Source: Eledone cirrhosa (taxonomy: Eukaryota). Taken from it: 64,000 nucleotides of DNA. Made by a program: the position numbers and the translations under genes. The notes under the pieces are model-generated. The model was not told where the DNA came from. It was given only the letters and a program-made list of their open reading frames with translations, and ran no database searches. Shown piece by piece: positions 3,025 through 57,175 of the stretch. The stretch is from positions 114,638,001 through 114,702,000 of the forward strand of contig OZ024745.1 of the NCBI GenBank assembly GCA_964016885.1, given 5' to 3'. Position 1 is the stretch's first letter. Each line of letters starts with the position of its first letter.

Positions 3025-3275
3025 AAAACATACCTAAAATCGTCTTCCTGTCTTCCTCCGGTTGCAACGTTTTTTTTGAAATATTCACTTCTGCGTTCAC
3101 AGATTGACTTTGTTAGTTTCAGAAGATCCCGTTAAGGGTGAAAGCAGCGATTCTTTGCGTAAACTTTAATCTGTTATTTTAATAAATAGTTGCTCTATAT
3201 TGGTATATATTTATCCTTATCGAGCCCTCTTTGGATTTTAGTCTTCAAATTTATTATTATTACTATTATTATTAT
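3025..3275 (+). mobile_element. Interspersed element with hammerhead-like core variant (CAGAAGA); second copy at ~39720-39965
   Basis: The two copies are clearly similar: agttt-CAGAAGA-tccc/gggt-GAAA...aaact, then AATAAA and an (ATT)n/(TA)n tail. Confidence 0.65.
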
Positions 3276-3407
3276 TATTACTATATATATATATATATAT
3301 CAGACAACACTCGCCTCCTATATATATATATATATATATATACATTTATATATATATATGCTTCAAAAATGTAATATATGTTTGTTTTCAAATTCACTTT
3401 AGCTCTA

Positions 3408-6573: not shown

Positions 6574-6628
<55 letters not shown>

Positions 6629-6714
6629 TATGCATACTCCAGTCCTACAAATTGTAGAGTGCTTCTTATCCGATATCTGCATTGCTTTATTGTACTACAA
6701 TAAAACTCACCTCC

Positions 6715-6765
<51 letters not shown>

Positions 6766-6895
6766 ATATGTAGGAGGTGAGTTTTATTGTAGTACAATAA
6801 AGCAATGCAGATATCGGATAAGAAGCACTCTACAGTTTGTAGGACTGGAGTATACATAATATATAAGAACAAAAGATGGTTAAAAGAGTTCCATG

Positions 6896-6966
6896 TATTT
6901 TAGTATGCGCATTTCAAAAACAAATATCATCATGCAATAATATTTGTGTTTTCATCAGATAAAACA
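6896..6966 (-). ncRNA. Type I hammerhead motif (inverted copy)
   Basis: Reverse complement of the 7128-7198 motif, with one stem I mismatch next to the cleavage site. Confidence 0.7.
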
Positions 6967-7127
6967 GGAAGACATGATATGAAGGTTAAAAAACACTTGT
7001 GGATAGTGCAGTTTTAAATCAACATATAAAAATTTTCATTTAATCCAGAATTGTTGTTTAATCCAGATATGTTGATTTAAAACTGCACTATCCACAAGTG
7101 TTTTTTAACCTTCATATCATGTCTTCC

Positions 7128-7198
7128 TGTTTTATCTGATGAAAACACAAATATTATTGCATGATGATATTTGTTTTTGAAATGCGCATAATAAAATA
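7128..7198 (+). ncRNA. Type I hammerhead ribozyme motif
   Basis: tgttttat-CTGATGA-aaacacaaatattatt/gatgatatttgtttt-GAAA-T-GCGC-ATA-ataaaata. Confidence 0.85.
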
Positions 7199-7256
7199 CA
7201 TGGAACTCTTTTAACCATCTTTTGTTCTTATATATTATATATATATATATGTATAC

Positions 7257-7370
<114 letters not shown>

Positions 7371-7572
7371 CATATATAGTATATAGTAAACAACGTAAAA
7401 GAAATTAATTCACAGCAAAAGAGAAAAAAACTATAAATAAATTTCCTCTTTTTTTTTAAGATATAAGTAGGTTTTCAGAAATAGTCATGATTATTTAAAT
7501 AGTTTTAGTACTTAACCAACTTCGCTGAGTAGTTTTTCAAAAGTTTACATTCTGGTTTGTATTATACATATC

Positions 7573-7757
7573 GGTGGATTGGCAGTATCGGTAGAGCGTC
7601 GGATACAGCATAGTGAGGTCTCTTTACGTTCTGATTTTAAATCCCGCCGAGGTTAGCTTTGCCTTTTGATAAATAAAGCACCATTAATGTACTGGGGTCA
7701 ATTTAATCGACTTCCCCTTCCTCTTCAAATTACTGGCCTTGCACCTAAAGTAGAAAC

Positions 7758-8238: not shown

Positions 8239-8440
8239 GCAGTATCGGTGGAGCATCGTACAACATGCTTTATGGCATAGAGTTAAGGCTCTTTACGAGT
8301 TCAAATCCTGTCACGGTTAGCTATGCGTTTCATCTTTACGGGGTCGATAGAATAAAGTACCAGTAATGCACTGGCGTCGATTTAATCGACTTTCCCTTCC
8401 CCAAAATTGTTGGCCTTGTGCCTAAATCAGAAACCAATAT
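8239..8440 (+). mobile_element. SINE family 1
   Basis: B box, core and 3' tail match the other copies. Confidence 0.85.
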
Positions 8441-11267: not shown

Positions 11268-11269
<2 letters not shown>

Positions 11270-11458
11270 CGAAGGAATTGTGGTAAGGAACCAGATGGAT
11301 CATAACGCACCAGAGTACTCAATACTTAGGGTAGTAGAGTGGGTAATAGGAAAAAGTATGACCCCGACGGCAGAGCTCAAGCCGTTTCGACGGCTATTTC
11401 TGGAGTCCAGAAATAGCCGTCGAAACGGCTTGAGCTCTGCCGTCGGGGTCATACTTTT

Positions 11459-11462
<4 letters not shown>
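11268..11462 (-). mobile_element. Snap-back palindromic element in (TA)n carrying the 3' half of a hammerhead (family G, copy 1)
   Basis: Perfect ~55-bp arms around ctggagtccag. Contains GAAAC-ggc...gcc-GTC-ggggtcat. A ~80-bp unique tail ends in (TA)n. Confidence 0.85.
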
Positions 11463-15168: not shown

Positions 15169-15584
<416 letters not shown>

Positions 15585-16688: not shown

Positions 16689-17100
<412 letters not shown>

Positions 17101-19662: not shown

Positions 19663-19900
19663 ACACGGAAAAACAAATGCCAAAGACAAACGAACAAAAG
19701 TATTCAATTTCCTCGTTATGGAATACGATTTCGTGCATAAGGTTGCTGACTAGAAAATTTGATGCATTTGTTCGCTTGTCCACTGCATCTGTTTTCCGTA
19801 TACAACTTTCTTTCTTAATATTATATATATTATCAAAACTATATATATATATATATATATATATGATAATAAGGGCGCTGCGGAGTTGCAAATGGGTTAC

Positions 19901-20003
19901 ATATGAAAAAAGTTTTGTCCTTCATCAGTGATCTTCCAACCATCATAGGCATTTGAAATGCCTATGATGGTTGGAAGATCACTGATGAAGGACAAACTTT
20001 TTT

Positions 20004-20007
<4 letters not shown>
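19901..20007. repeat. Near-perfect palindrome between (TA)n tracts, with CTGATGA in each arm; single-arm relative at 39007-39105
   Basis: atgaaaaaagttttgtccttcatcagtgatcttccaaccatcataggcattt-g-aaatgcctatgatggttggaagatcactgatgaaggacaaacttttttcat. Confidence 0.85.
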
Positions 20008-21350: not shown

Positions 21351-21430
21351 TAGGAAAATGTTCAAGATATATATATGAAAATGTTCAAGACCCCGACGGC
21401 AGAGCTCAAGCCGATTCGACGGCTATTTCT

Positions 21431-21433
<3 letters not shown>
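21351..21433 (-). mobile_element. Family G single-arm remnant in (TA)n
   Basis: gaccccgacggcagagctcaagccgattcgacggctatttctgga, ending at the position of the palindrome centre. Confidence 0.75.
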
Positions 21434-26472: not shown

Positions 26473-26505
26473 CATACATACATACATACATACACACACA
26501 CATAT

Positions 26506-26649
<144 letters not shown>

Positions 26650-26868
26650 GTATATCTACAGCTCTCTTGTAGCTGTAGATATTATTACAACACATTTTCG
26701 TTCAGTACTCTTAACTACTCATTCAACTCAAAGATAATTGATAGAAATCTTATTCGATGAATTATTGTTTGTTAGTAATAATAAAAAAAATAAGATTAAA
26801 AGAAATGTACAAATCCACATATTCATACTTCGGTTAATACACACACACACGCGCGCGCACACGCACAA

Positions 26869-28689: not shown

Positions 28690-29939
28690 GTGTTTCTTTA
28701 TTAGCCACAGGGGCACAAAAGAAGGGAACAATTACAAAGGGGGGAGTTTACATACAATAAAAACGTGTAAAATGTTATCACAATTGTAAATTAAAAGTTA
28801 ATCGATTTTCCCCAATAGGGGGAGACAGTTCATATGGGTAGCACATACCCCCGAAAAAAATGTACAACCCTCATCTCCAGGAGTACGAAGAGTTTGTACC
28901 CCTTTCCTCTCTTCCTCTTTTTCCTCAACCTACAGGCTGATATAGAGAGAAGGCCCATTCACTCGGGCCATTCTCGCCACTTTCACCCACCTTTCATAAA
29001 ACTTGCTGGGGTACAGCACTTCTCTCTCCATCCTGACTCTTCTTCCAAGTGGTATTTGAAAAAAAGAACCAGTTGTTGGCCGGAGAGAAAGGTGTCTGAC
29101 CTCAGCCCTTTTAACCTATTCCACCATACAACCTCTTTCGCCATAGCTATCACACAAAGGAAAACCGCCTCTCCTTCGTTTTTGAAGGAGGGTGGCGGTT
29201 TGATCATGACAATGGACTCGGTGGTCAACTGGATTGGTCCCACCCGCGACAATAGTCGTTCTACATAGCTCCACAGGTCGGTAACGCCCGGGCAGTGTAT
29301 GAATGCGTGCGCGACGGTTTCTTCGTCTCGCACGCATCTCGGACAGATCTTTTTCGAAGGGTCCCTGCCCGGGCGCCCATGTCTGTAGAGCTTGTCTCGA
29401 ACTGGTAGAGCTCCTCGGTAGCACTGCCAGGCCAGGGACTTTTGGAAGTTGTCCATCGGTCCCGGACGGAAGGTCCTACCGAACAGACTGGACATTTTGT
29501 CTTCCTCCACGCCTAGAGTTTCTCCGAGCGCGTCGTCGCACTTAATGCGGATCAACCCTCTATAGAATGACGAAGTGGAGTCTCCACTGATCGCCGGGTC
29601 CGCCTGCCAGAGGGCTATGAGCGCCTGAGCACATTCGATGTGCCAGTCGCCCATTTTCCTCGGTCTTTTCTTGACCAAGGACTGCAGCTCGGTCAGCGAG
29701 ACGAGTCGTGGCAAGGCTCGCCTCACGAACGGGGCCCACACCGGTTGTCCGGTGAGGAATACGTAGAGATGCCGCAGCCTGAGCGCGTGTTTGCGCATCG
29801 TCAGCCACGGCATCTCCAGCCCTCCGTTGGAAGGGTGTTGGCAGCAGATGGATCTTCTCACCAAAGGAGCCCGCTTCTTCCAAAGGAATTGGAAGAGCGC
29901 GCGCTCCATTTTGGTGAGCGTTTTGGCTGGACAAGACAC
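28690..29939 (-). mobile_element. Tx1/L1-like LINE 3' fragment A (RT thumb, CCHC zinc region, 3' UTR)
   Basis: ORF 28983-29939: FQFLW..GGLEMP..GALPVRDKL..CPRC..EETVAHAFIHC. AATAAA then (TATC)n. Confidence 0.9.
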
Positions 29940-29997
<58 letters not shown>

Positions 29998-29998
<1 letters not shown>

Positions 29999-30597
29999 TT
30001 CTTTATTTGCCACAAGGGCGCACAAGAAAAGGGGACAATACAAAGACATGCCGGGGATTTTATATACAGTCGTGTAAAAAATATAAAAACAAACAATTAC
30101 AGCAATCGAAATCCCCAATAGGGGGGAAGCACCACAAATGGGTTGTTTAATACCCCGTCGATAGAACAACCCTCAACTCCAGGAGCGCGTTGTGCAAGTG
30201 CTCCTTTCTTCCTTTTGCTCTCTTCTTTAACCTACAGGCTTATAAACAGAGAAGGCCCAATCACGCGGGCCATTTTCGCTTCATTCACCCACCTTTCAGT
30301 AAATTTACTGGGGTGCAGTGCCTCTCTCTCCACCCTGATTCTCCTTCTAAAGTGATACTTAAAGAAGGGAATCAATTGTTGTCCGGAGAGAAAGGAATCT
30401 GTCTTCAGTCCTCTCAATCTCGTCCGCCATATAACTTCTTTCACCATAGCCACTGTACAGAGGAAAACCGCTCTCTTTCGTTTTTGAAAGAGGCTGGCGG
30501 TTTGATCCTTACTATGGACTCGGCAGTCAACTGGATTTGTCCCATACGCGACAGCAGTTGTTCTGCATAGTTCCACAGGTCGGTTACGCCCGGGCAG
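29998..30597 (-). mobile_element. Tx1/L1-like LINE 3' fragment B
   Basis: CPGVTDLWNYAEQLLSRMG...RWVNEAKMARVIGPSLFISL*. (GATA)n on both sides. Confidence 0.88.
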
Positions 30598-30685
<88 letters not shown>

Positions 30686-30686
<1 letters not shown>

Positions 30687-31647
30687 TGTTTCTTTTATTT
30701 GCCACCAGGGCATCAAAAGTGGGACAAGTACAAAGGGGGGAGTTTACACAAAAAGGCGCCCTCAATAAGGAGGAGGCAATAACAAAATATAAAAATAAAA
30801 TAAAATATAACAAAAAATAAAATTTGTAACAAAATCCTCAATAGAGAGGAGGCGCCTTGGGGGGTCGCACACACCCCCGAAAAAGAGAGGGGGTGCTCCC
30901 TCGTTCCTTCCTCCTTTCCACCTACAGGCTTATGTAAAGAGAAGGCTCATTCACACGGGCCATTCTCGCCACTTTCACCCACCTTTCATAAAAACGACTG
31001 GGGTGGAGCACCTCTCTCTCCATCCTGATCCTTCTTCCGAAATGATATCGGAAGAAACGGACCAGTTGTTGGCCAGAGAGAAAGGTGCCTGACCTCAGTC
31101 CTTTCAGACGCGTCCACCATACAACCTCTTTCGCCATGGCTATTACGCACAGAAACACCGCCTCTGCTTCATCTTTGAAGGGGGGAGGCGGCTTGATCAT
31201 TACAATAGACTCGGTGGTCAACCGGATCGGTCCCACCCTTGACAGCAGTTGTTCGACATAGCCCCACAGATCGGCTACGCCCGAGCAGTGTACCAATGCG
31301 TGTGCAACGGTTTCCTCGTCGCACACGCATCTGGGACAGATCTTTTTGGCGGGGTCCCTACCCGGGCGCCCGTGTCTGTAGAGCCTTTCTCGAACGGGTA
31401 AAGCCCCTCGGTAGCACTGCCAGGCCAGGGACTTCTGGAAGTTGTCCATAGGTCCCGGGCTGAATGTCCTACCGAACAGGCTGGCCAGTTCGTCCTCCTC
31501 CATGTCTAGGGCTTCTCCGAGGGCGTCGTCGCACCTGCTGCGTACCAGCCCTCTATAGAATGTTGCGGTGGAGTCTCCACTGATAACCGGATCCGCCTGC
31601 CAGAGGGCGGTGAGCGCCTGGGCACACTCAGTGTGCCAGGCGCCCAG
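30686..31647 (-). mobile_element. Tx1/L1-like LINE 3' fragment C
   Basis: ORF 30922-31503 is homologous to A but has a distinct 3' UTR. (GATA)n flanks. Confidence 0.9.
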
Positions 31648-33376: not shown

Positions 33377-33724
<348 letters not shown>

Positions 33725-35156: not shown

Positions 35157-38100
35157 CTAACAGTGCTGCGATCGAATGTGGCTTTTTAGCCCAGCCAATG
35201 ATCCAAAATGTCTTGCACAGAGTCGGCAACCAAAACATTTACTGGGAATAGTCGGCTGTGGTTGGAGTTCGTGTACTTTTGCATGTCGCTTGAGTCCTCC
35301 TGCTGATTTACATTCTCTACCACATGTTTGGCAAGCATGATGAGTAGCATCTCCAACAGCAGCCTGGTAGTCAACCACTGGTCTTACTTTATGACTGCGA
35401 AGATGACTTTCGAGTCCAGCTTTGCTTAGGCAGAGTCTCGCACAGACGCTGCATGTCAGAAACATAGGAGGACCCTCGCCGTCTGGAAGTGCAACAGCAA
35501 TACCCTTCCTCACGTCCCGCTTTACTTTCTCGTGTGCGATTCGAGATGCCTCAAAGGCAACTTTTCCCTCATATACAGTCTTTCTCCATTTATTACGATC
35601 AGCAGCAACATTTTCCCATGTATCAGCAGAGATGTTAGCGTCTCTCAGAGAGGCCTTCAAGGAATCCTTATACCTCTTTTTTGGTTTATGTGGCGGTCGT
35701 TTTCCTTTAACCAACTCTCCATAGAAGAGTTGTTTTGGTATTCTAGAATCCTTCATCCTGGCAAGGTGACCACTCCAACGGAGTCGCTGCTTAAGCACAA
35801 GAGCTTCTATACTGTCACACATAGAGCTTTCCAAAATCTCGACATCACTGATGTGGTCCCTCCAGTGAACGCCATGTATCCGTCTGAGACACATCTGATG
35901 GAAACGCTCCAATTGCTTAAGGTGGCGTCGATATGTGACCCAGGTCTCGCAGGCATAAAGAAGACAAGAGAGTACACATGCCCTGTACACCCTTACCTTT
36001 GTCCTCCTGCATATGTCTCGCCGACCCCAGAGTCGCCTTTCTAGCTTTCCGAAAGCATCACTTGCTTTCCTAATCCTAAGTGAGATTTCACTGTCAAGGT
36101 TGCCGTATCGATTGACAGTGCTTCCCAGGTAGACAAACTGATCAACCACTCCAAGTCGTTTGCCATACACATAGATGTTTGGTTCAGTGTACTGCCTACC
36201 AGGTGCAGGTTGGTACATGACGACGGTTTTCTTGAGACTGACAGTCAAACCCAGGGCAGTGCAAGCGTCAGAAAATACATTCAAAATGTGCTGCATATCA
36301 CTCTCTGTGTGCGCTACAAGATCGCAATCATCTGCATACAAGAGGTCTCTTATGACTGATGTAAATACTTTTGTCTTCGCAGCAAAGCGCCTGATGTTAA
36401 ATATGCTGCCTGAGGTTCGATATCGGATGTAAACACCATGCTCGCAATTCCTGAATGCAATACAGAAAACCATTGCAAAGTATATGGCAAACAGGGTCGG
36501 TGCTGGAATATCCCCCTGTTTCACTCCATTTTTTACTGAGATAGGCTCCGACATGTTACCTCCGACATTAACCCAAGCCTTCATGTCGTCATGGAAAGAC
36601 CTAACTAAAGCAAGGAACTTATCAGGGCAACCAAGTTTCTGGAGAACCTTCCATAATGCATCTCTGTTGACAGTATCGAAAGCCTTTGTCAGATCGACAA
36701 AAACCTGATACAGATCCAAGCCCTGTTCAATGCACTTCTCCTGGAGCTGTCTAGCTGAGAAGATCATATCAGTAGTGCCGCGTCCAACACGAAAACCAGA
36801 TTGACTTTCAGGAAGGACACAATCTGCAATGTGTGTCAGCAGACGGTCCAGAAGCACCCTACATAAAACTTTCCCCACGACAGAAAGCAATGATATACCT
36901 CTGTAGTTCCCACAATCATTCCTGTTACCCTTTCCCTTGTACAAGACCACCATTACTGCATCTCTCCAGTCCTCAGGCACGGATTCATTAGCCCATATCC
37001 TTCCAAACAGAGAGTGAAGATGTTGCAGGAGTCTCTCACCACCATATTGTAGGAGCTCAGCATGTATGCCATCCATACCTGGAGATCTTCCACTGTTCAG
37101 CTTCGAAATAGCCACTGCAACCTCCACAAGTGTCGGAGGCTCTGCGAGAGCTACTTTCACAGGACTTTCCGGAATGAGATTGAGGAAATCTTCACTGACG
37201 ACAGACGGCTGATTCAAAAGATCATCAAAGTGCTCTCGCCACCTTCGTAGAATTCCCTGTGAGTCACGAAGAAGTTCTTTGCCATCCCTGCTGCGAATCG
37301 GTGTCACCAGAGAAGAAGACGGTCCATAAACCTCACGCAAGAGACTGTACAACAGCTTTGTGTTATTGCAATCAGACGCAGTTTGTATCTCACCAGCCTT
37401 CTCACTCCACCACTGATCCTTCATCTGAGAAAGACTCCGCCTAACACGTGATTTTACATCCCTGAGCTCCTCATGCAACGTATTCCTCTCCTGTGGTCTT
37501 GCCGTCAAGTAGCGTGACAGAGCGCGCCTCTTATCAGCCAACAAGTCATCTATATGCACATCTTTCTCATTAAACCAGTCCTGATGTTTTCTCTGCACCA
37601 ATCCCAGAACACGTCTGCCTACATCATAAACCGACTTTTTAAGGGTCGGCCAATCCTCACCAAGATCTGCAGCCTGCATCTCTTCTTCCAATGTCCTCTT
37701 CACATTTTTATCCTTAAGACGAGCAGCATTCAATCTTTTGGGCAGGGTAACACCAGGAGCCCGGATTTTACGTTTGGTGATTAGATTCACTTTTGCGCGT
37801 ACCAGGCGGTGGTCCGTCCAGCACTCAGCTCCACGAAGAACACGAACACACCGCACATCCTGTCTGTCACGCATCCTGACTAGGACGTAGTCCAAAAGAT
37901 GCCATTCCTTAGATGCAGGATGCATCCATGTGGTCTTGAATTTGTTCTTTTGTTGGAACATCGTGTTGGTAACACACAGATCCAGCTCCTCACACATCTG
38001 CAGCAAGAGCATACCATTGCTGTTACACTTTCCCACCCCATGCCTTCCGATTACATTCCATGTGTTAAAATCCCTACCCACTCTAGCATTAAAGTCACCA

Positions 38101-38411
38101 AGCACGATGACTTTGTCTGCCTGAGGGATATTTCTTAAAACACCTTTCAAGGCATGGTAAAAGGACAGTTTTTCTTCATCGACAGAATTCATAGTTGGAG
38201 CATACACACTCACCAGGGTAGCATATCTTCCCTTGTCCAGCGGAACTCTCATGGACATAAGACGCTCACTAATCCCCACTGGGAATTCTTCTAATTTATT
38301 CACCAGTACAGTCTTAACAGCAAATCCTACCCCAGCCTCTCTTCTGGTTCCTTCATCTCTTCCTTTCCAGAAGAATGTATATTCTCTCACAAAATTCCGT
38401 AAGATGACCAT
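35157..38411 (-). CDS. RTE polyprotein (APE endonuclease, reverse transcriptase, 3 x C2H2); N-terminus continues across one frameshift to ~38700
   Basis: 1084-aa open frame. The upstream frame encodes [10 protein letters not shown]...[13 protein letters not shown], and the frameshift lies at ~38385-38395. Confidence 0.92.
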
Positions 38412-38696
38412 CTCCAGCTAACCTCGTCTCAGACAAAGCCACGATGTCAAGATCGTAACGTCGAAGCTCCTTCGCAACAAGAGCGGTCCTTCGTTCAGGA
38501 CGCTCCAAAGAATCCCTGTCAAGCAGCGTCCGTACGTTCCAGCAGCCAAGACTAAATGCCCTGTTTGGCTCTATTACAATGGCACGATGACGGGCGGGCC
38601 CAGGTTGTGATAACTTGGGGCCCCTGCCCTTATTGCCAATGATCTCTTTTGTTCCAGAACCCAAATTGGCAATTATCTCGTTTACATTGTTCTGGA

Positions 38697-39719: not shown

Positions 39720-39965
39720 CCACGAACCAAAGTATCGTCTTCCTGTCTTCCTCCGGTTGCAACGTTTTTTGAAATATTCACTTCTGCGTTCACATATTGA
39801 CTTTATTAGTTTCAGAAGATCCAGTTAAGGGTGAAAACGTTGCTTAAACTTTAATCTGTTATTTTAATAAATATTTGTTCTACGGTTCTTATATATCTGA
39901 TATATATTTATCCTTATCGAGCCCTCTTTGGATTTTAGTCTTCAAATTTATTATTATTACTATAT
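39720..39965 (+). mobile_element. Second copy of the 3.0-kb element (CAGAAGA hammerhead-like core at 39808-39850)
   Basis: Aligns with 3025-3275. Confidence 0.7.
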
Positions 39966-39995
39966 ATATTTATTACTATATATATATATTATTAT

Positions 39996-40067
<72 letters not shown>

Positions 40068-41510: not shown

Positions 41511-41570
41511 CATACATATACATACATACACACACACATATATATATTTTTTTTGGTCGTTTTGGAAGCA

Positions 41571-42083
41571 TCAACAATGCAGACGGGTAAATCTCCGGGT
41601 AACAGAATCCGGTAGTGAAGAGAGAGATGTAAGGGAATGTAGAATGAGATGTATAGTGTGTAGAGGAACGTAGGAAAGAGCGTAAAAAATAAAAATAACA
41701 ACACGAGATAACAACACTTGGGAGAGATTTAATTGTCCCTATATTTCGGATTCGCATCCATCAACTGGGGTGTTTTCCAGGGGGGTTATCTGTCAGATAG
41801 GAACGGTGTTACACACAAACAGCGGACAACAGAGGCCACGTACCGTTCCTCTCCGACAGATAACTTTCCCCCCGGAAAACCCCCCCAGTTGATGGATGCG
41901 AATCCGAAATATCGGGACAATTAAATCTCTCCCAAGGTAACTCTATCTCGTATTGTTATTTTTATTTTTTACGCTCTTTCCTACGTTCCTCTACACACTA
42001 TACATCTCATTCTACATTCCCTTACATCTCTCTCTTCACCACCGGATTCTGTTACCCGGAGATTTACTCATCTGCATTGTTGA
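41571..42083. repeat. ~510-bp palindrome (arms ~235 bp, ~32-bp spacer)
   Basis: tcaacaatgcagacgggtaaatc...aggaacggt is inverted as accgttcct...gatttactcatctgcattgttga. Confidence 0.92.
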
Positions 42084-42151
42084 GGCGACCCCCCCCCCCA
42101 AAAAAAAAAATGTTATTATTCTACAATGCTTCAAGCAAACTTCAATACTCT

Positions 42152-42218
<67 letters not shown>

Positions 42219-42248
42219 AGATCAAAAGATGGTTAAAGGAGTTCCATG

Positions 42249-42316
42249 TATTTTATTATGCGCATTTCAAAAACAAACATCATGCAATAATATTTGTGTT
42301 TTCATCAGATAAAACA
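42249..42316 (-). ncRNA. Type I hammerhead motif (inverted copy)
   Basis: Reverse complement of 42426-42496, with a 3-nt deletion in stem II. Confidence 0.8.
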
Positions 42317-42425
42317 GGAGAACATGATATGAAGGCTAAAAAACACTTGTGGATAGTGCAGTTTTAAATCAACATATCAACTGAACTATCCACAAGTGTT
42401 TTTTAGCCTTCATATCATGTTCTCC

Positions 42426-42496
42426 TGTTTTATCTGATGAAAACACAAATATTATTGCATGATGATGTTTGTTTTTGAAATGCGCATAATAAAATA
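42426..42496 (+). ncRNA. Type I hammerhead ribozyme motif
   Basis: tgttttat-CTGATGA-stem II-GAAA-T-GCGC-ATA-ataaaata. Confidence 0.85.
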
Positions 42497-42617
42497 CATG
42501 GTACTCCTTTAACCATCTTTTGATCTTATATTATGTATACTCCAGTCCTACAAACTGTAGAGTGCTTCTTATCCGATATCTGCATTGCTTTATTGTACTA
42601 CAATAAAACTCACCTCC

Positions 42618-42657
<40 letters not shown>

Positions 42658-47555: not shown

Positions 47556-48895
47556 GGCGGTGGATTGGCAGTATCGGTAGAGGGTTTGACGCCATGCTTT
47601 CCAGCATAGTTACGTCCCTTTACGATCTGAGTTCAAATCCCGCCGAGGTTGACTTTGCCTTTCATCCTTACGGGGTCGATAAAATAAAGTACCAGTAATG
47701 CACTGGGTAATTGCTGGCCTTGTGCCTAAAGTAGAAACAATTATTTTTTGGTGGATTGGCAGTATCGGTAGAGGGTTGGACGCCATGCTTTCCAGCATAG
47801 TTACGTCCCTTTACGATCTGAGTTCAAATCCCGCCGAGGTTGACTTTGCCTTTCATCCTTACGGGGTCGATAAAATAAAGTACCAGTAATGCACTGGGTA
47901 ATTGCTGGCCTTGTGCCTAAAGTAGAAACAATTATTTTTTGGTGGATTGGCAGTATCGGTAGAGGGTTGGACGCCATGCTTTCCAGCATAGTTACGTCCC
48001 TTTACGATCTGAGTTCAAATCCCGCCGAGGTTGACTTTGCCTTTCATCCTTACGGGGTCGATAAAATAAAGTACCAGTAATGCACTGGGTAATTGCTGGC
48101 CTTGTGCCTAAAGTAGAAACAATTATTTTTTGGTGGATTGGCAGTATCGGTAGAGGGTTGGACGCCATGCTTTCCAGCATAGTTACGTCCCTTTACGATC
48201 TGAGTTCAAATCCCGCCGAGGTTGACTTTGCCTTTCATCCTTACGGGGTCGATAAAATAAAGTACCAGTAATGCACTGGGTAATTGCTGGCCTTGTGCCT
48301 AAAGTAGAAACAATTATTTTTTGGTGGATTGGCAGTATCGGTAGAGGGTTGGACGCCATGCTTTCCAGCATAGTTACGTCCCTTTACGATCTGAGTTCAA
48401 ATCCCGCCGAGGTTGACTTTGCCTTTCATCCTTACGGGGTCGATAAAATAAAGTACCAGTAATGCACTGGGTATTTGCTGGCCTTGTGCCTAAAGTAGAA
48501 ACAATTATTTTTTGGTGGATTGGCAGTATCGGTAGAGGGTTGGACGCCATGCTTTCCAGCATAGTTACGTCCCTTTACGATCTGAGTTCAAATCCCGCCG
48601 AGGTTGACTTTGCCTTTCATCCTTACGGGGTCGATAAAATAAAGTACCAGTAATGCACTGGGTAATTGCTGGCCTTGTGCCTAAAGTAGAAACAATTATT
48701 TTTTGGTGGATTGGCAGTATCGGTAGAGGGTTGGACGCCATGCTTTCCAACATAGTTACGTCCCTTTACGATGTGAGTTCAAATCCCGCCGAGGTTGACT
48801 TTGCCTTTCATCCTTACGGGGTCGATAGAATAAAGTACCAGGAATGCACTGGGTAATTGCTGGCCTTGTGCCTAAAGTAGAAACAATTATTTTTT
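47556..48895 (+). repeat. Tandem array of 7 near-identical 191-bp SINE family 1 monomers
   Basis: Monomer starts at 47559, 47750, 47941, 48132, 48323, 48514 and 48705. Confidence 0.97.
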
Positions 48896-49204
48896 GTTGT
48901 CGTATGAAGTTTACACATACATCTAGAGACATATTACCTAACTGAAGTTCTTCCTCTGTTCTTCACCTATACATGCCCTCAATCGCCTTGACCAAACCTA
49001 TGAAACTCACAATATCTAGTCCCGACACGAAGCCGATGCAAAAACTATATAATGCCTTCAGAAAATGTTTGATGCAGAGACAAACTTAGTTCGTTCTGCA
49101 ATGATCGACCACTTTTTAGACTTCACATTATTCTTTATCGTTTCTTGATGAAACATATGCCTTCCGGTTTTGTTTAGGTGAATCATCAGCGATCCTTCTG
49201 TATG

Positions 49205-49854: not shown

Positions 49855-52800
49855 TACATGCACCAATATCGACATACCAGTAACATATTTACAGTATAGT
49901 GTTCACAGTACATACACCAATATCGACATACCAGTAACATATTTACAGTATTCACAGTACGTACACCAATATGGACATACCAGTAACATATTTACAGTAT
50001 ACAGTATTCACAGTACATACACCAATATGGACATACCAGTGACATATTTACAGTATACAGTATACACAGTACATACACCAATATGGACATACCAGTAACA
50101 TATTTACAGTATACAGTATTCACAGTACATACACCAATATCGACATACCAGTAACATATTTACAGTATTCACAGTACGTACACCAATATGGACATACCAG
50201 TAACATATTTACAGTATACAGTATTCACAGTACATACACCAATATCGACATACCAGTAACATATTTACAGTATTCACAGTACGTACACCAATATGGACAT
50301 ACCAGTAACATATTTACAGTATACAGTATTCACAGTACATACACCAATATGGACATACCAGTGACATATTTACAGTATACAGTATTCACAGTACATACAC
50401 CAATATCGACATACCAGTAACATATTTACAGTATATAGTGTTCACAGTACATACACCAATATGGACATACCAGTGACATATTTACAGTATACAGTATACA
50501 CAATACATACACCAATATCCACATACCAGTGACATATTTACAGTATACAGTGTTCACAGTACATACACCAATATGGACATACCAGTAACATATTTACAGT
50601 ATACAGTATACACAATACATACACCAATATGGACATACCAGTAACATATTTACAGTATACAGTGTTCACAGTACATACACCAATATGGACATACCAGTAA
50701 CATATTTACAGTATACAGTGTTCACAGTACATACACCAATATGGACATACCAGTAACATATTTACAGTATACAGTATTCACAGTACATACACCAATATGG
50801 ACATACCAGTAACATATTTACAGTATACAGTATACACAGTACATACACCAATATGGACATACCAGTGACATATTTACAGTATACAGTGTTCACAGTACAT
50901 ACACCAATATGGACATACCAGTAACATATTTACAGTATACAGTATTCACAGTACATACACCAATATGGACATACCAGTAACATATTTACAGTATACAGTA
51001 TACACAGTACATACACCAATATGGACATACCAGTGACATATTTACAGTATACAGTGTTCACAGTACATACACCAATATGGACATACCAGTAACATATTTA
51101 CAGTATACAGTATTCACAGTACATACACCAATATGGACATACCAGTAACATATTTACAGTATACAGTATACACAGTACATACACCAATATGGACATACCA
51201 GTAACATATTTACAGTATACAGTATTCACAGTACATACACCAATATGGACATACCAGTAACATATTTACAGTATACAGTGTTCACAGTACATACACCAAT
51301 ATGGACATACCAGTAACATATTTACAGTATACAGTGTTCACAGTACATACACCAATATGGACATACCAGTAACATATTTACAGTATACAGTATTCACAGT
51401 ACATACACCAATATGGACATACCAGTAACATATTTACAGTATACAGTATACACAGTACATACACCAATATGGACATACCAGTGACATATTTACAGTATAC
51501 AGTGTTCACAGTACATACACCAATATGGACATACCAGTAACATATTTACAGTATACAGTATTCACAGTACATACACCAATATGGACATACCAGTAACATA
51601 TTTACAGTATACAGTATACACAGTACATACACCAATATGGACATACCAGTAACATATTTACAGTATACAGTATTCACAGTACATACACCAATATGGACAT
51701 ACCAGTAACATATTTACAGTATACAGTATACACAGTACATACACCAATATCGACATACCAGTAACATATTTACAGTATACAGTATACACAGTACATACAC
51801 CAATATCCACATACCAGTGACATATTTACAGTATACAGTATTCACAGTACATACACCAATATGGACATACCAGTAACATATTTACAGTATACAGTGTTCA
51901 CAGTACATACACCAATATCGACATACCAGTGACATATTTACAGTATACAGTATACACAGTACATACACCAATATGGACATACCAGTGACATATTTACAGT
52001 ATACAGTGTTCACAGTACATACACCAATATGGACATACCAGTGACATATTTACAGTATACAGTGTTCACAGTACATACACCAATATGGACATACCAGTGA
52101 CATATTTACAGTATACAGTATACACATTACATACACCAATATGGACATACCAGTGACATATTTACAGTATACAGTATACACAGTACATACACCAATATGG
52201 ACATACCAGTGACATATTTACAGTATACAGTGTTCACAGTACATACACCAATATGGACATACCAGTGACATATTTACAGTATAGTGTTCACAGTACATAC
52301 ACCAATATGGACATACCAGTGACATATTTACAGTATACAGTGTTCACAGTACATACACCAATATGGACATACCAGTAACATATTTACAGTATACAGTATA
52401 CACATTACATACACCAATATGGACATACCAGTGACATATTTACAGTATAGAGTATACACAGTACATACACCAATATGGACATACCAGTGACATATTTACA
52501 GTATACAGTGTTCACAGTACATACACCAATATGGACATACCAGTAACATATTTACAGTATACAGTGTTCACAGTACATACACCAATATGGACATACCAGT
52601 GACATATTTACAGTATACAGTGTTCACAGTACATACACCAATATGGACATACCAGTAACATATTTACAGTATACAGTATTCACAGTACATACACCAATAT
52701 GGACATACCAGTAACATATTTACAGTATACAGTATACACAGTACATACACCAATATGGACATACCAGTAACATATTTACAGTATACAGTATTCACAGTAC

Positions 52801-55800
52801 ATACACCAATATGGACATACCAGTAACATATTTACAGTATACAGTATACACAGTACATACACCAATATCGACATACCAGTAACATATTTACAGTATACAG
52901 TATACACAGTACATACACCAATATCCACATACCAGTGACATATTTACAGTATACAGTATTCACAGTACATACACCAATATGGACATACCAGTAACATATT
53001 TACAGTATACAGTGTTCACAGTACATACACCAATATCGACATACCAGTGACATATTTACAGTATACAGTATACACAGTACATACACCAATATGGACATAC
53101 CAGTGACATATTTACAGTATACAGTGTTCACAGTACATACACCAATATGGACATACCAGTGACATATTTACAGTATACAGTGTTCACAGTACATACACCA
53201 ATATGGACATACCAGTGACATATTTACAGTATACAGTATACACATTACATACACCAATATGGACATACCAGTGACATATTTACAGTATACAGTATACACA
53301 GTACATACACCAATATGGACATACCAGTGACATATTTACAGTATACAGTGTTCACAGTACATACACCAATATGGACATACCAGTGACATATTTACAGTAT
53401 AGTGTTCACAGTACATACACCAATATGGACATACCAGTGACATATTTACAGTATACAGTGTTCACAGTACATACACCAATATGGACATACCAGTAACATA
53501 TTTACAGTATACAGTATACACATTACATACACCAATATGGACATACCAGTGACATATTTACAGTATAGAGTATACACAGTACATACACCAATATGGACAT
53601 ACCAGTGACATATTTACAGTATACAGTGTTCACAGTACATACACCAATATGGACATACCAGTAACATATTTACAGTATACAGTGTTCACAGTACATACAC
53701 CAATATGGACATACCAGTGACATATTTACAGTATACAGTGTTCACAGTACATACACCAATATGGACATACCAGTGACATATTTACAGTATACAGTGTTCA
53801 CAGTACATACACCAATATCGACATACCAGTAACATATTTACAGTATACAGTATTTACAGTACATACACCAATATGGACATACCAGTGACATATTTACAGT
53901 ATATAGTGTTCACAGTACATACACCAATATGGACATACCAGTGACATATTTACAGTATACAGTATTCACAGTACATACACCAATATGGACATACCAGTGA
54001 CATATTTACAGTATACAGTATACACAGTACATACACCAATATGGACATACCAGTAACATATTTACAGTATACAGTATACACAGTACATACACCAATATCG
54101 ACATACCAGTAACATATTTACAGTATACAGTATTCACAATACATACACCAATATCGACATATCAGTGACATATTTACAGTATACAGTATACACAGTACAT
54201 ACACCAATATCGACATATCAGTGACATATTTACAGTATACAGTATTCACATTACATACACCAATATGGACATACCAGTGACATATTTACAGTATACAGTA
54301 TTCACATTACATACACCAATGTGGACATACCAGTGACATATTTACAGTATACAGTATACACAGTACATACACCAATATGGACATACCAGTGACATATTTA
54401 CAGTATACAGTATACACAGTACATACACCAATATGGACATACCAGTAACATATTTACAGTATACAGTGTTCACAGTACATACACCAATATGGACATACCA
54501 GTAACATATTTACAGTATACAGTATTCACATTACATACAGCAATATGGACATACCAGTGACATATTTACAGTATACAGTATTCACAGTACATACACCAAT
54601 ATGGACATACCAGTAACATATTTACAGTATACAGTGTTCACAGTACATACACCAATATGGACATACCAGTAACATATTTACAGTATACAGTATACACAGT
54701 ACATACACCAATATGGACATACCAGTGACATATTTACAGTATACAGTATTCACATTACATACAGCAATATGGACATACCAGTGACATATTTACAGTATAC
54801 AGTATTCACAGTACATACACCAATATCGACATACCAGTAACATATTTACAGTATACAGTATACACAATACATACACCAATATGGACATACCAGTAACATA
54901 TTTACAGTATACAGTGTTCACAGTACATACACCAATATGGACATACCAGTAACATATTTACAGTATACAGTGTTCACAGTACATACACCAATATGGACAT
55001 ACCAGTAACATATTTACAGTATACAGTATTCACATTACATACAGCAATATGGACATACCAGTGACATATTTACAGTATACAGTATTCACAGTAGATACAC
55101 CAATATGGACATACCAGTAACATATTTACAGTATACAGTGTTCACAGTACATACACCAATATGGACATACCAGTGACATATTTACAGTATACAGTATTCA
55201 CAGTACATACACCAATATGGACATACCAGTGACATATTTACAGTATACAGTATTCACAGTACATACACCAATATGGACATACCAGTGACATATTTACAGT
55301 ATACAGTGTTCACAGTACATACACCAATATCGACATACCAGTGACATATTTACAGTATACAGTATACACAATACATACACCAATATGGACATACCAGTAA
55401 CATATTTACAGTATACAGTATACACAGTACATACACCAATATCGACATACCAGTAACATATTTACAGTATACAGTATACACAATACATACACCAATATGG
55501 ACATACCAGTAACATATTTACAGTATACAGTGTTCACAGTACGTACACCAATATGGACATACCAGTAACATATTTACAGTATACAGTGTTCACATTACAT
55601 ACAGCAATATGGACATACCAGTGACATATTTACAGTATACAGTATTCACAGTACATACACCAATATGGACATACCAGTGACATATTTACAGTATACAGTA
55701 TTCACAGTACGTACACCAATATGGACATATCAGTGACATATTTACAGTATACAGTATTCACAGTACATACACCAATATCCACATACCAGTGACATATTTA

Positions 55801-57175
55801 CAGTATACAGTGTTCACAGTACATACACCAATATGGACATACCAGTGACATATTTACAGTATACAGTGTTCACAGTACATACACCAATATCGACATATCA
55901 GTGACATATTTACAGTATTCACAGTACATACACCAATATGGACATACCAGTGACATATTTACAGTATACAGTATTCACAGTACGTACACCAATATGGACA
56001 TACCAGTGACATATTTACAGTATACAGTATTCACAGTACATACACCAATATCGACATACCAGTGACATATTTACAGTATACAGTGTTCACAGTACATACA
56101 CCAATATGGACATACCAGTGACATATTTACAGTATACAGTGTTCACAGTACATACACCAATATGGACATACCAGTGACATATTTACAGTATACAGTATAC
56201 ACAGTACATACACCAATATCGACATATCAGTGACATATTTACAGTATACAGTATACACAGTACATACACCAATATGGACATACCAGTGACATATTTACAG
56301 TATACAGTATACACAGTACATACACCAATATGGACATACCAGTGACATATTTACAGTATACAGTGTTCACAGTACATACACCAATATGGACATACCAGTG
56401 ACATATTTACAGTATACAGTATACACAGTACATACACCAATATGGACATACCAGTAACATATTTACAGTATACAGTGTTCACAGTACATACACCAATATG
56501 GACATACCAGTAACATATTTACAGTATACAGTATTCACAGTACATACACCAATATGGACATACCAGTGACATATTTACAGTATACAGTATTCACAGTACA
56601 TACACCAATATGGACATACCAGTGACATATTTACAGTATACAGTATACACAGTACATACACCAATATGGACATACCAGTAACATATTTACAGTATACAGT
56701 GTTCACAGTACATACACCAATATCCACATACCAGTGACATATTTACAGTATACAGTATTCACAATACATACACCAATATCGACATACCAGTGACATATTT
56801 ACAGTTTACAGTATTCACAATACATACACCAATATGGACATACCAGTGACATATTTACAGTATACAGTGTTCACAGTACATACACCAATATGGACATACC
56901 AGTAACATATTTACAGTATACAGTGTTCACAGTACATACACCAATATCCACATACCAGTGACATATTTACAGTATACAGTGTTCACAGTACATACACCAA
57001 TATGGACATACCAGTAACATATTTACAGTATACAGTATTCACAGTACATGCACCAATATCGACATACCAGTGACATATTTACAGTATATAGTGTTCACAT
57101 TACATACACCAATATGGACATACCAGTGACATATTTACAGTATATAGTGTTCACAATATGCGACATTTACAGCAT
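49855..57175. repeat. 56-bp satellite array, ~130 monomers, with 49- and 54-bp variants
   Basis: Unit acatacaccaatatggacataccagt(a/g)acatatttacagtatacagt(a/g)t(t/a)cacagt. Confidence 0.98.

Follow-up and report, generated by a model that had tools for sequence, protein, structure and literature searches.

A tail-only piece facing a hammerhead-bearing fold-back repeat across a TA tract in Eledone cirrhosa: possible trace of a third priming in a Penelope-like insertion

Background

As described in PMC8557442, Penelope-like insertions comprise an element with an adjacent inverted and 5'-truncated copy and a tail of 30-40 bp on one end, and show a bias towards microsatellites. The head-to-head arrangement is reported as the usual form, and the tail-to-tail arrangement as what self-priming on a sense template should yield (PMC3846280). 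In metazoans, these elements carry pairs of hammerhead ribozymes about 100-700 bp apart and on opposite strands (PMC4209133). According to PMC11167929, the element PAc has two reverse-transcription start sites that define the tail, both strands of AT-rich target DNA are cut and extended, and the hammerhead of PAc is not needed for insertion in vitro. How start sites, target strands and templates are coupled is called unresolved in the passages of the Penelope-like literature on which we draw.

Here we analyze a locus of Eledone cirrhosa in which a fold-back repeat with two hammerhead motifs faces an additional, tail-only piece across a TA tract. All positions refer to the window, that is the whole stretch of 64,000 nucleotides that was analyzed (assembly GCA_964016885.1, contig OZ024745.1, positions 114,638,001 to 114,702,000 of the forward strand).

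Results and discussion

Three pieces of one repeat family share a locus

The locus (6574-7385) is composed of three pieces from one repeat family of about 260 nt, in the order A, TA tract, B, 34-nt spacer, C and again TA. On the left, a microsatellite of (TA)6 followed by (TG)20 (6574-6626) joins A through a short TAT overlap. Piece A (6626-6717, + strand, 92 nt) consists of the tail only: it starts at the TA-rich boundary between tail and body, and contains an AATAAA motif and an AC-rich 3' end. A and B both point their 3' ends towards the central (TA)26 tract (6718-6769), which includes a short GTGT variant. Piece B (6770-7032, - strand) is a whole unit made of the tail (6770 to about 6860) and of the body up to a common 5' limit at about 7027; it extends up to 5 nt past this limit, with extra bases that fit a longer relative. 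Beyond a junction filler of 34 nt that is specific to this locus (7033-7066), piece C (7067-7236, + strand) runs from the common 5' limit to an internal 3' end, which abuts an imperfect TA tract of 79 units (7229-7385).

The first-pass annotation had described 3' ends facing one TA tract from both sides and a fold-back near 7030-7066 with a repeated sequence at the turn, and both observations held. The arms 6626-6743 and 6744-6861 are 97% complementary, with their center within the TA tract, and overlap a second pair of inverted arms of 177 nt (6851-7027 and 7067-7243; 99%) that flanks the spacer. Within the spacer is a repeat of 11 nt, similar to the beginning of arm C and equalled in only one of 5000 shuffles; the spacer likely arose by slippage or re-priming during end joining.

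Piece C lacks the last 85-90 nt of the unit, namely the tail, and A is almost exactly this missing tail, a correspondence that the first-pass annotation had overlooked. The start of A lies within a few bases of the position in the unit where C ends, both in a TA-rich stretch. The tail is also a short open frame (6632-6718, + strand, and its equivalent in B), which opens with an ATG and spans about 29 codons, a length within chance; Penelope tails are described as overlapping the start of the reading frame (PMC3846280).

The fold-back is the usual form of the family

The proposed comparison of substitutions among the three segments and with the family gave a clear answer for B and C. Over 170 nt they differ at one position, and they share a letter at 6869 held by 23% of the depth in X1, one of the four sequencing runs used below (X1, X4, X24 and X5). 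A second copy of the family (42204-42620) is likewise a fold-back flanked by TA tracts, in which a short junction separates a tail-less inverted arm from an arm that bears the tail; it has hammerhead motifs at 42308 (- strand) and 42434 (+ strand) and no extra tail piece. Its two arms, D and E, share five substitutions and one indel against both B and C. On these sequence comparisons, B and C are one event rather than two insertions because both carry one haplotype, so that the choice between two insertions and serial template switching offered in the first-pass annotation falls away for B and C and stays only for A. Since the arms of each fold-back share a haplotype, we suggest that one template, or one donor, served for both copies; gene conversion between the arms at a later time could also produce this pattern. 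Just upstream of the second copy lies an imperfect palindrome of about 520 nt (41568-42086; 88%).

We relied on sequencing data to see how other members of the family end. The stretch 6762-7100, which starts downstream of A, was aligned to four runs (4516, 396, 5038 and 35 records). Among the rows listed, loose ends joined to TA occur at 6765-6770 in all four runs and at 6851 in three of the four. The family thus has two fixed 3' ends that are joined to TA and separated by about 85-90 nt, and the same two ends are found in the run of Organism B. The read depth drops steeply at about 7027, which is the common 5' limit, and loose ends behind 7032 in X1, X4 and X24 point to a relative with a longer 5' part. 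The summed depth in X1 is about 0.9-2.2 million over the body and 63.5 over the spacer bin (7038-7049), a ratio of about ten-thousandfold that we take only to mean that the family is very abundant because summed depth is not a copy number. The same bin has depth 0 in X4, X24 and X5.

The best 15 of 68 joints in the four runs each have a different fold-back point. Among the joints listed, those from 6804, 6820, 6931, 6969 and 7008-7028 lead to about 7066, and we read them as fold-backs in other copies of the family, given that 7066-7100 is an inverted copy of the 5' end of the unit. Two opposite-strand joints are present in the raw reads of another study, one in 98 reads with one start and the other in 79 reads with two starts. 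Inheritance of the fold-back from one master hairpin was rejected, as these 15 joints differ and none exceeds depth 400. A MITE or foldback DNA transposon, for which the terminal inverted repeats should be symmetric and fixed around an invariant center, was also rejected: the ends are asymmetric by the tail and the junctions vary between copies. We did not retain the 2-nt indel at 6859 as a marker, its frequency being discordant between runs (1187 out of 1915 in X24, and 260 out of 856,818 in X1).

In the window we picked by hand nine fold-back units from five or six families, and all nine lie between or beside TA tracts and have a one-sided extension of 25-95 nt, with the extra tail absent in seven. 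Together with the second copy and the joints in the reads, they indicate that the B-C fold-back is the routine insertion form of its family and nothing special to this locus. B and C very probably represent a new, abundant family with a known insertion pattern. The sharpness of the common 5' limit points to a family that is short and non-autonomous, and the architecture likely matches the published Penelope-like unit, with an inverted copy, a one-sided tail and hammerheads on opposite strands. Membership rests on this architecture because the 103 frames of the window compared with Pfam (98 of them chosen from 179 listed) contain no Penelope-like reverse transcriptase or GIY-YIG frame; for the same reason, the mobilizing enzyme is known only by inference. 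The insertion target is a TA tract, inside which a duplication is unreadable. A frame of 1086 amino acids at 35157-38417 (- strand) matches endonuclease, reverse transcriptase and a C-terminal zinc finger, and was rejected as the Penelope partner, being a near-intact endonuclease-reverse transcriptase element of the non-LTR type. The 64-kb window contains no tRNA.

Outside the runs, viral contigs gave one match to the tail pattern, confined to 20 letters and judged to be chance, and none to the hammerhead pattern. Metagenome contigs gave zero and seven pattern matches, respectively, and the seven, without further similarity or TA tracts, were also judged to be chance. Of the 24 rows of sequencing runs listed, 20 contain part of the stretch, none of them RNA, and the results given here draw on four runs.

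Several other repeats of the window end in TA or form fold-backs. A second TA-flanked fold-back family is present in four copies (11269-11460, 15203-15392, 16819-17018 and 33378-33568), with arms of 52-59 nt, a one-sided tail of 76-83 nt and no match to the hammerhead descriptor defined below. Further TA-flanked fold-back units lie at 1330-1724, with a hammerhead motif at 1626 (+ strand) and a palindromic helix III, and at 19871-20007. Two copies of another repeat that ends in TA are found at 3100-3358 and 39800-40064; in one of them, two TA runs enclose an additional AC-rich piece of about 19 nt (3300-3318), whose end resembles the tail end of the A, B and C family. Tandem arrays are also present: several fragments from the 3' region of a non-LTR element, arranged in tandem and each terminated by a GATA-type repeat (28983-31647, - strand; zf-RVT match); seven near-identical 191-nt units (47559-48896), similar to a repeat dispersed at about 7570-7730 and 8240-8400; and 129 units of a 56-nt satellite (49944-57155).

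Hammerhead motifs are probable passengers of the copied region

The presence of hammerheads on opposite strands was confirmed, with one correction: positions 6896 and 7128, at which they had been placed, mark where stem I terminates on its outer side. The motif in B (6896-6966, - strand) has C3 of its core at 6958 and a predicted cleavage after 6904, and that in C (7128-7198, + strand) has C3 at 7136, a stem I of eight pairs and a predicted cleavage after 7190. Both have the type I core (CUGANGA, GAAA and UH) with three helices, and the B motif has a long stem II and a palindromic stem III of 6 nt. We searched the window with a descriptor for type I motifs with palindromic helix III. It returned five matches, at 6958 (- strand), 7136 (+ strand), 42308 (- strand), 42434 (+ strand) and 1626 (+ strand), the last unrelated to the other four, and none in each of 30 block-shuffled windows, a control that favors the motifs because the descriptor was written with them already in view. 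Rfam gave no match at gathering score over the whole window, and no hammerhead family was among the 75 matches with E up to 10 that it gave for 6600-7300; matches to microRNA families below gathering score in this interval were rejected, since they reflect the long hairpins only. Free folding of the isolated motifs was no better than that of shuffles (z of -0.7 and -1.1).

Variation within the family supports the hammerhead fold. Among the best 40 of 81 variant rows listed, changes in stem II preserve pairing as G-U or G-C, and the sole common change of the core in the DNA runs falls on the free position N7. The B motif has a private letter at position 1.1 (6903), where a C.U mismatch disrupts stem I at its first pair, adjacent to the site of cleavage; the other letter accounts for 1,459,319 of 1,460,597 of the summed depth in X1 (> 99% of the family depth). 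In X4, A-to-G differences at 6902, 6905 and 6940 reach 18%, 14% and 11% of the depth (18, 18 and 19 contigs), while they are at most 0.02% in X1 and almost absent from X24 and X5. They look like A-to-I editing of fold-back hairpins, or else like alleles, X4 being a separate sample with a library of unrecorded kind.

Any transcript spanning B and C is predicted to fold into a hairpin of 177 pairs (-271 kcal/mol), which would hide the hammerheads. Because such a transcript is predicted as one long hairpin, hammerhead activity at 6626-7236 is unlikely. By analogy with PMC4209133, the palindromic helix III implies a dimer for the putative self-cleavage.

A third priming is a candidate origin of the tail-only piece

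With the fold-back accounted for, A is the part of the locus to be explained. Our preferred, tentative reading, to which we give nearly an even chance, is a single insertion into a TA microsatellite, carried out by a Penelope-like reverse transcriptase, in which A was a third, abortive priming on the opposite strand during the same event. The reading builds on the three pieces, the common 5' limit, the variable junctions and the single haplotype of each fold-back. A short hammerhead-bearing repeat would have been copied into the TA tract, the hammerheads being passengers of the copied region. By extension from PMC11167929, the two 3' ends would correspond to two reverse-transcription start sites on the RNA, and both target strands would have been nicked, with B primed from the end of the tail and C from the internal site. 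The cDNAs of B and C would then have been joined head to head through the slipped filler. In the weakest steps of the model, A would have been primed from the end of the tail on the bottom strand of the self-complementary TA tract and would have stopped at the internal start site, either blocked or captured by a TA-like overlap, before being joined to the (TG)n flank.

We measured how often such an arrangement occurs in the window. Inverted copies flank the edges of two of the 66 TA tracts, once two weak low-complexity scores are set aside: the present locus and the tract at 26525-26626. In the latter (26503-26682), a piece of about 22 nt faces, across a TA tract of 102 nt, an inverted longer copy with a fold-back of 12 bp. 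The short piece is again the one-sided extension of the longer copy, with the same split, although the two 3' ends differ by 2 nt and the arms have only 12 bp; the window contains no other copy of this element. As a control, we cross-paired the flanks of different tracts, a procedure limited to families that are multicopy within the window, and obtained eight matches in 4032 pairs, corresponding to 0.13 expected among 64 tracts. The observed two out of 64 exceed this expectation (P = 0.007). When the selected case is left out, one of 63 tracts remains (P = 0.12).

The substitutions in A may be read in more than one way. A and B differ by two substitutions over 92 nt (6835 and 6854 in B), and in comparison with the pooled divergence between the arms of single events (7 out of 576) this is compatible with a single event (probability of at least two differences, 0.31; Fisher P = 0.36). 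The letter of A at 6854 is a variant of the family, accounting for 2.2% of the depth in X1 (two contigs) and 7% in X4, and found in one contig of X5; the difference at 6835 is absent among the variant rows listed. A family variant is what a different template would bring, and counts weakly against an origin in the same event. Three alternative letters of the family are commoner (6793, 6810 and 6823; 23-25% each in X1); A carries none of them, an observation that is uninformative about its origin.

The best of the other accounts is that A is a separate insertion of the same family, on the other strand of the same TA tract and cut short at the TA-rich tail boundary by microhomology with the target. 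We give it a modest chance of being right. The abundance of the family, as far as summed depth in X1 and not copy number tells, and its targeting of TA tracts would provide the opportunity, A carries a family variant that B does not have, and the excess of tail-to-tail tracts is not significant without the selected case. However, in each of the two tail-to-tail cases the short piece is a nearly exact match to the tail, and because the variant that A shares with the family is rare (about 2%), a second template is favored only weakly.

A later inverted duplication by the host is improbable. A nascent strand would have snapped back in the TA tract, recopied the tail and rejoined its template at the TA-like boundary. 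The TA tract is indeed self-complementary, both tail-only pieces start at a microsatellite-like overlap, and two differences over 92 nt would fit this common origin. Nevertheless, both tracts with inverted flanks, out of 64, lie at apparent element tails and none at ordinary DNA, and the 2-nt difference between the ends at 26503 is not expected from direct copying. The same difference disfavors, at that second case, pure self-priming on sense RNA, which predicts a perfect palindrome.

It is very improbable that a fold-back read chimera or an assembly error created the tail-to-tail piece, or all of the structure. The stretch aligned to the runs (6762-7100) comprises B, the spacer and the start of C and begins downstream of A and its (TG)n junction, X1 may be the source of the assembly and no contig among those listed spans that stretch, but the arms are short, bounded, different by substitutions and unlike in their flanks, and the depth of X1 contigs over the spacer bin together with the family fold-backs in the raw short reads of another study makes an artifact unlikely for B and C.

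Overall, the evidence leans slightly towards a coupled origin of A. A broader and still tentative generalization, for which the chances are somewhat below even, is that three primings per event occur on long TA targets and leave a fixed signature, in which a tail and a full copy face each other across (TA)n and the full copy is followed by a tail-less one. Under that generalization, the outer pieces A and C would together represent one RNA split at the internal start site. If true, the signature would be a recurrent footprint of two start sites on one template, or of self-priming on the sense strand, for which PMC3846280 predicts a tail-to-tail product. Should A have been made in the same event as B and C, thousands of natural products would become available to test the coupling of start sites, target strands and number of RNA templates.

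In the four-copy fold-back family of the window, a lone tail-less arm (21353-21432) begins with 14 nt that are present twice, on either side of a short run of TA (21353-21390). This suggests repeated priming and looks like an abortive start followed by re-priming.

Comparison with known systems

Twin priming of L1 also involves both target strands, which prime cDNA, one of them internally, and yields two parts that do not overlap. Some joints of the present family (from 6860 and 6863) similarly pair a piece of tail length with a full body, whereas B and C overlap over 170 nt.

Non-LTR retrozymes (bioRxiv 10.64898/2026.07.22.740005) are comparable in being short, non-coding and linked to Penelope-like elements, and in having a type I hammerhead. 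They are described as head-to-tail tandems, whereas the present family is made of dispersed fold-backs with one hammerhead per strand; both loci in the window are head-to-head fold-backs, and the family was not assigned to retrozymes. The Naiad clade, described as targeting TA and without a canonical hammerhead (PMC8557442), was also rejected: the TA target is found here, but so is a hammerhead.

The motifs resemble the hammerheads of PMC4209133 in their type I fold, long helix II and small palindromic helix III. They differ in that helix II, of about 12 pairs, opens with A-U pairs and not with the conserved G10.1-C11.1 pair described there, and in being motifs known from sequence.

A biochemical parallel is PAc, from the Poseidon elements of Anolis (PMC11167929), with two 3' ends or start sites, use of both strands, an AT-rich target and a hammerhead upstream of the start sites. 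PAc is an autonomous lizard element whose insertion has been demonstrated in vitro, in contrast to our start sites, which are deduced from genomic ends, and the portions of PMC11167929 on which we draw do not describe a three-piece product. In the literature covered, consisting of main texts and few subscription papers, we found no tail-only partner placed tail to tail in a Penelope-like insertion, and supplements may show three-piece cases.

In architecture, the locus is most similar to the units of endonuclease-bearing Penelope-like elements (PMC8557442, PMC3846280), with which it shares the head-to-head inverted and 5'-truncated copy, the single tail, the repeated hammerhead and the microsatellite target. 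It departs from them, as described, in its tail of 85-92 nt, compared to the printed 30-40 (PMC8557442), in having no visible reading frame and in the extra tail-only piece placed tail to tail. Fold-backs with paired hammerheads are ordinary for Penelope-like elements, and only piece A is unusual.
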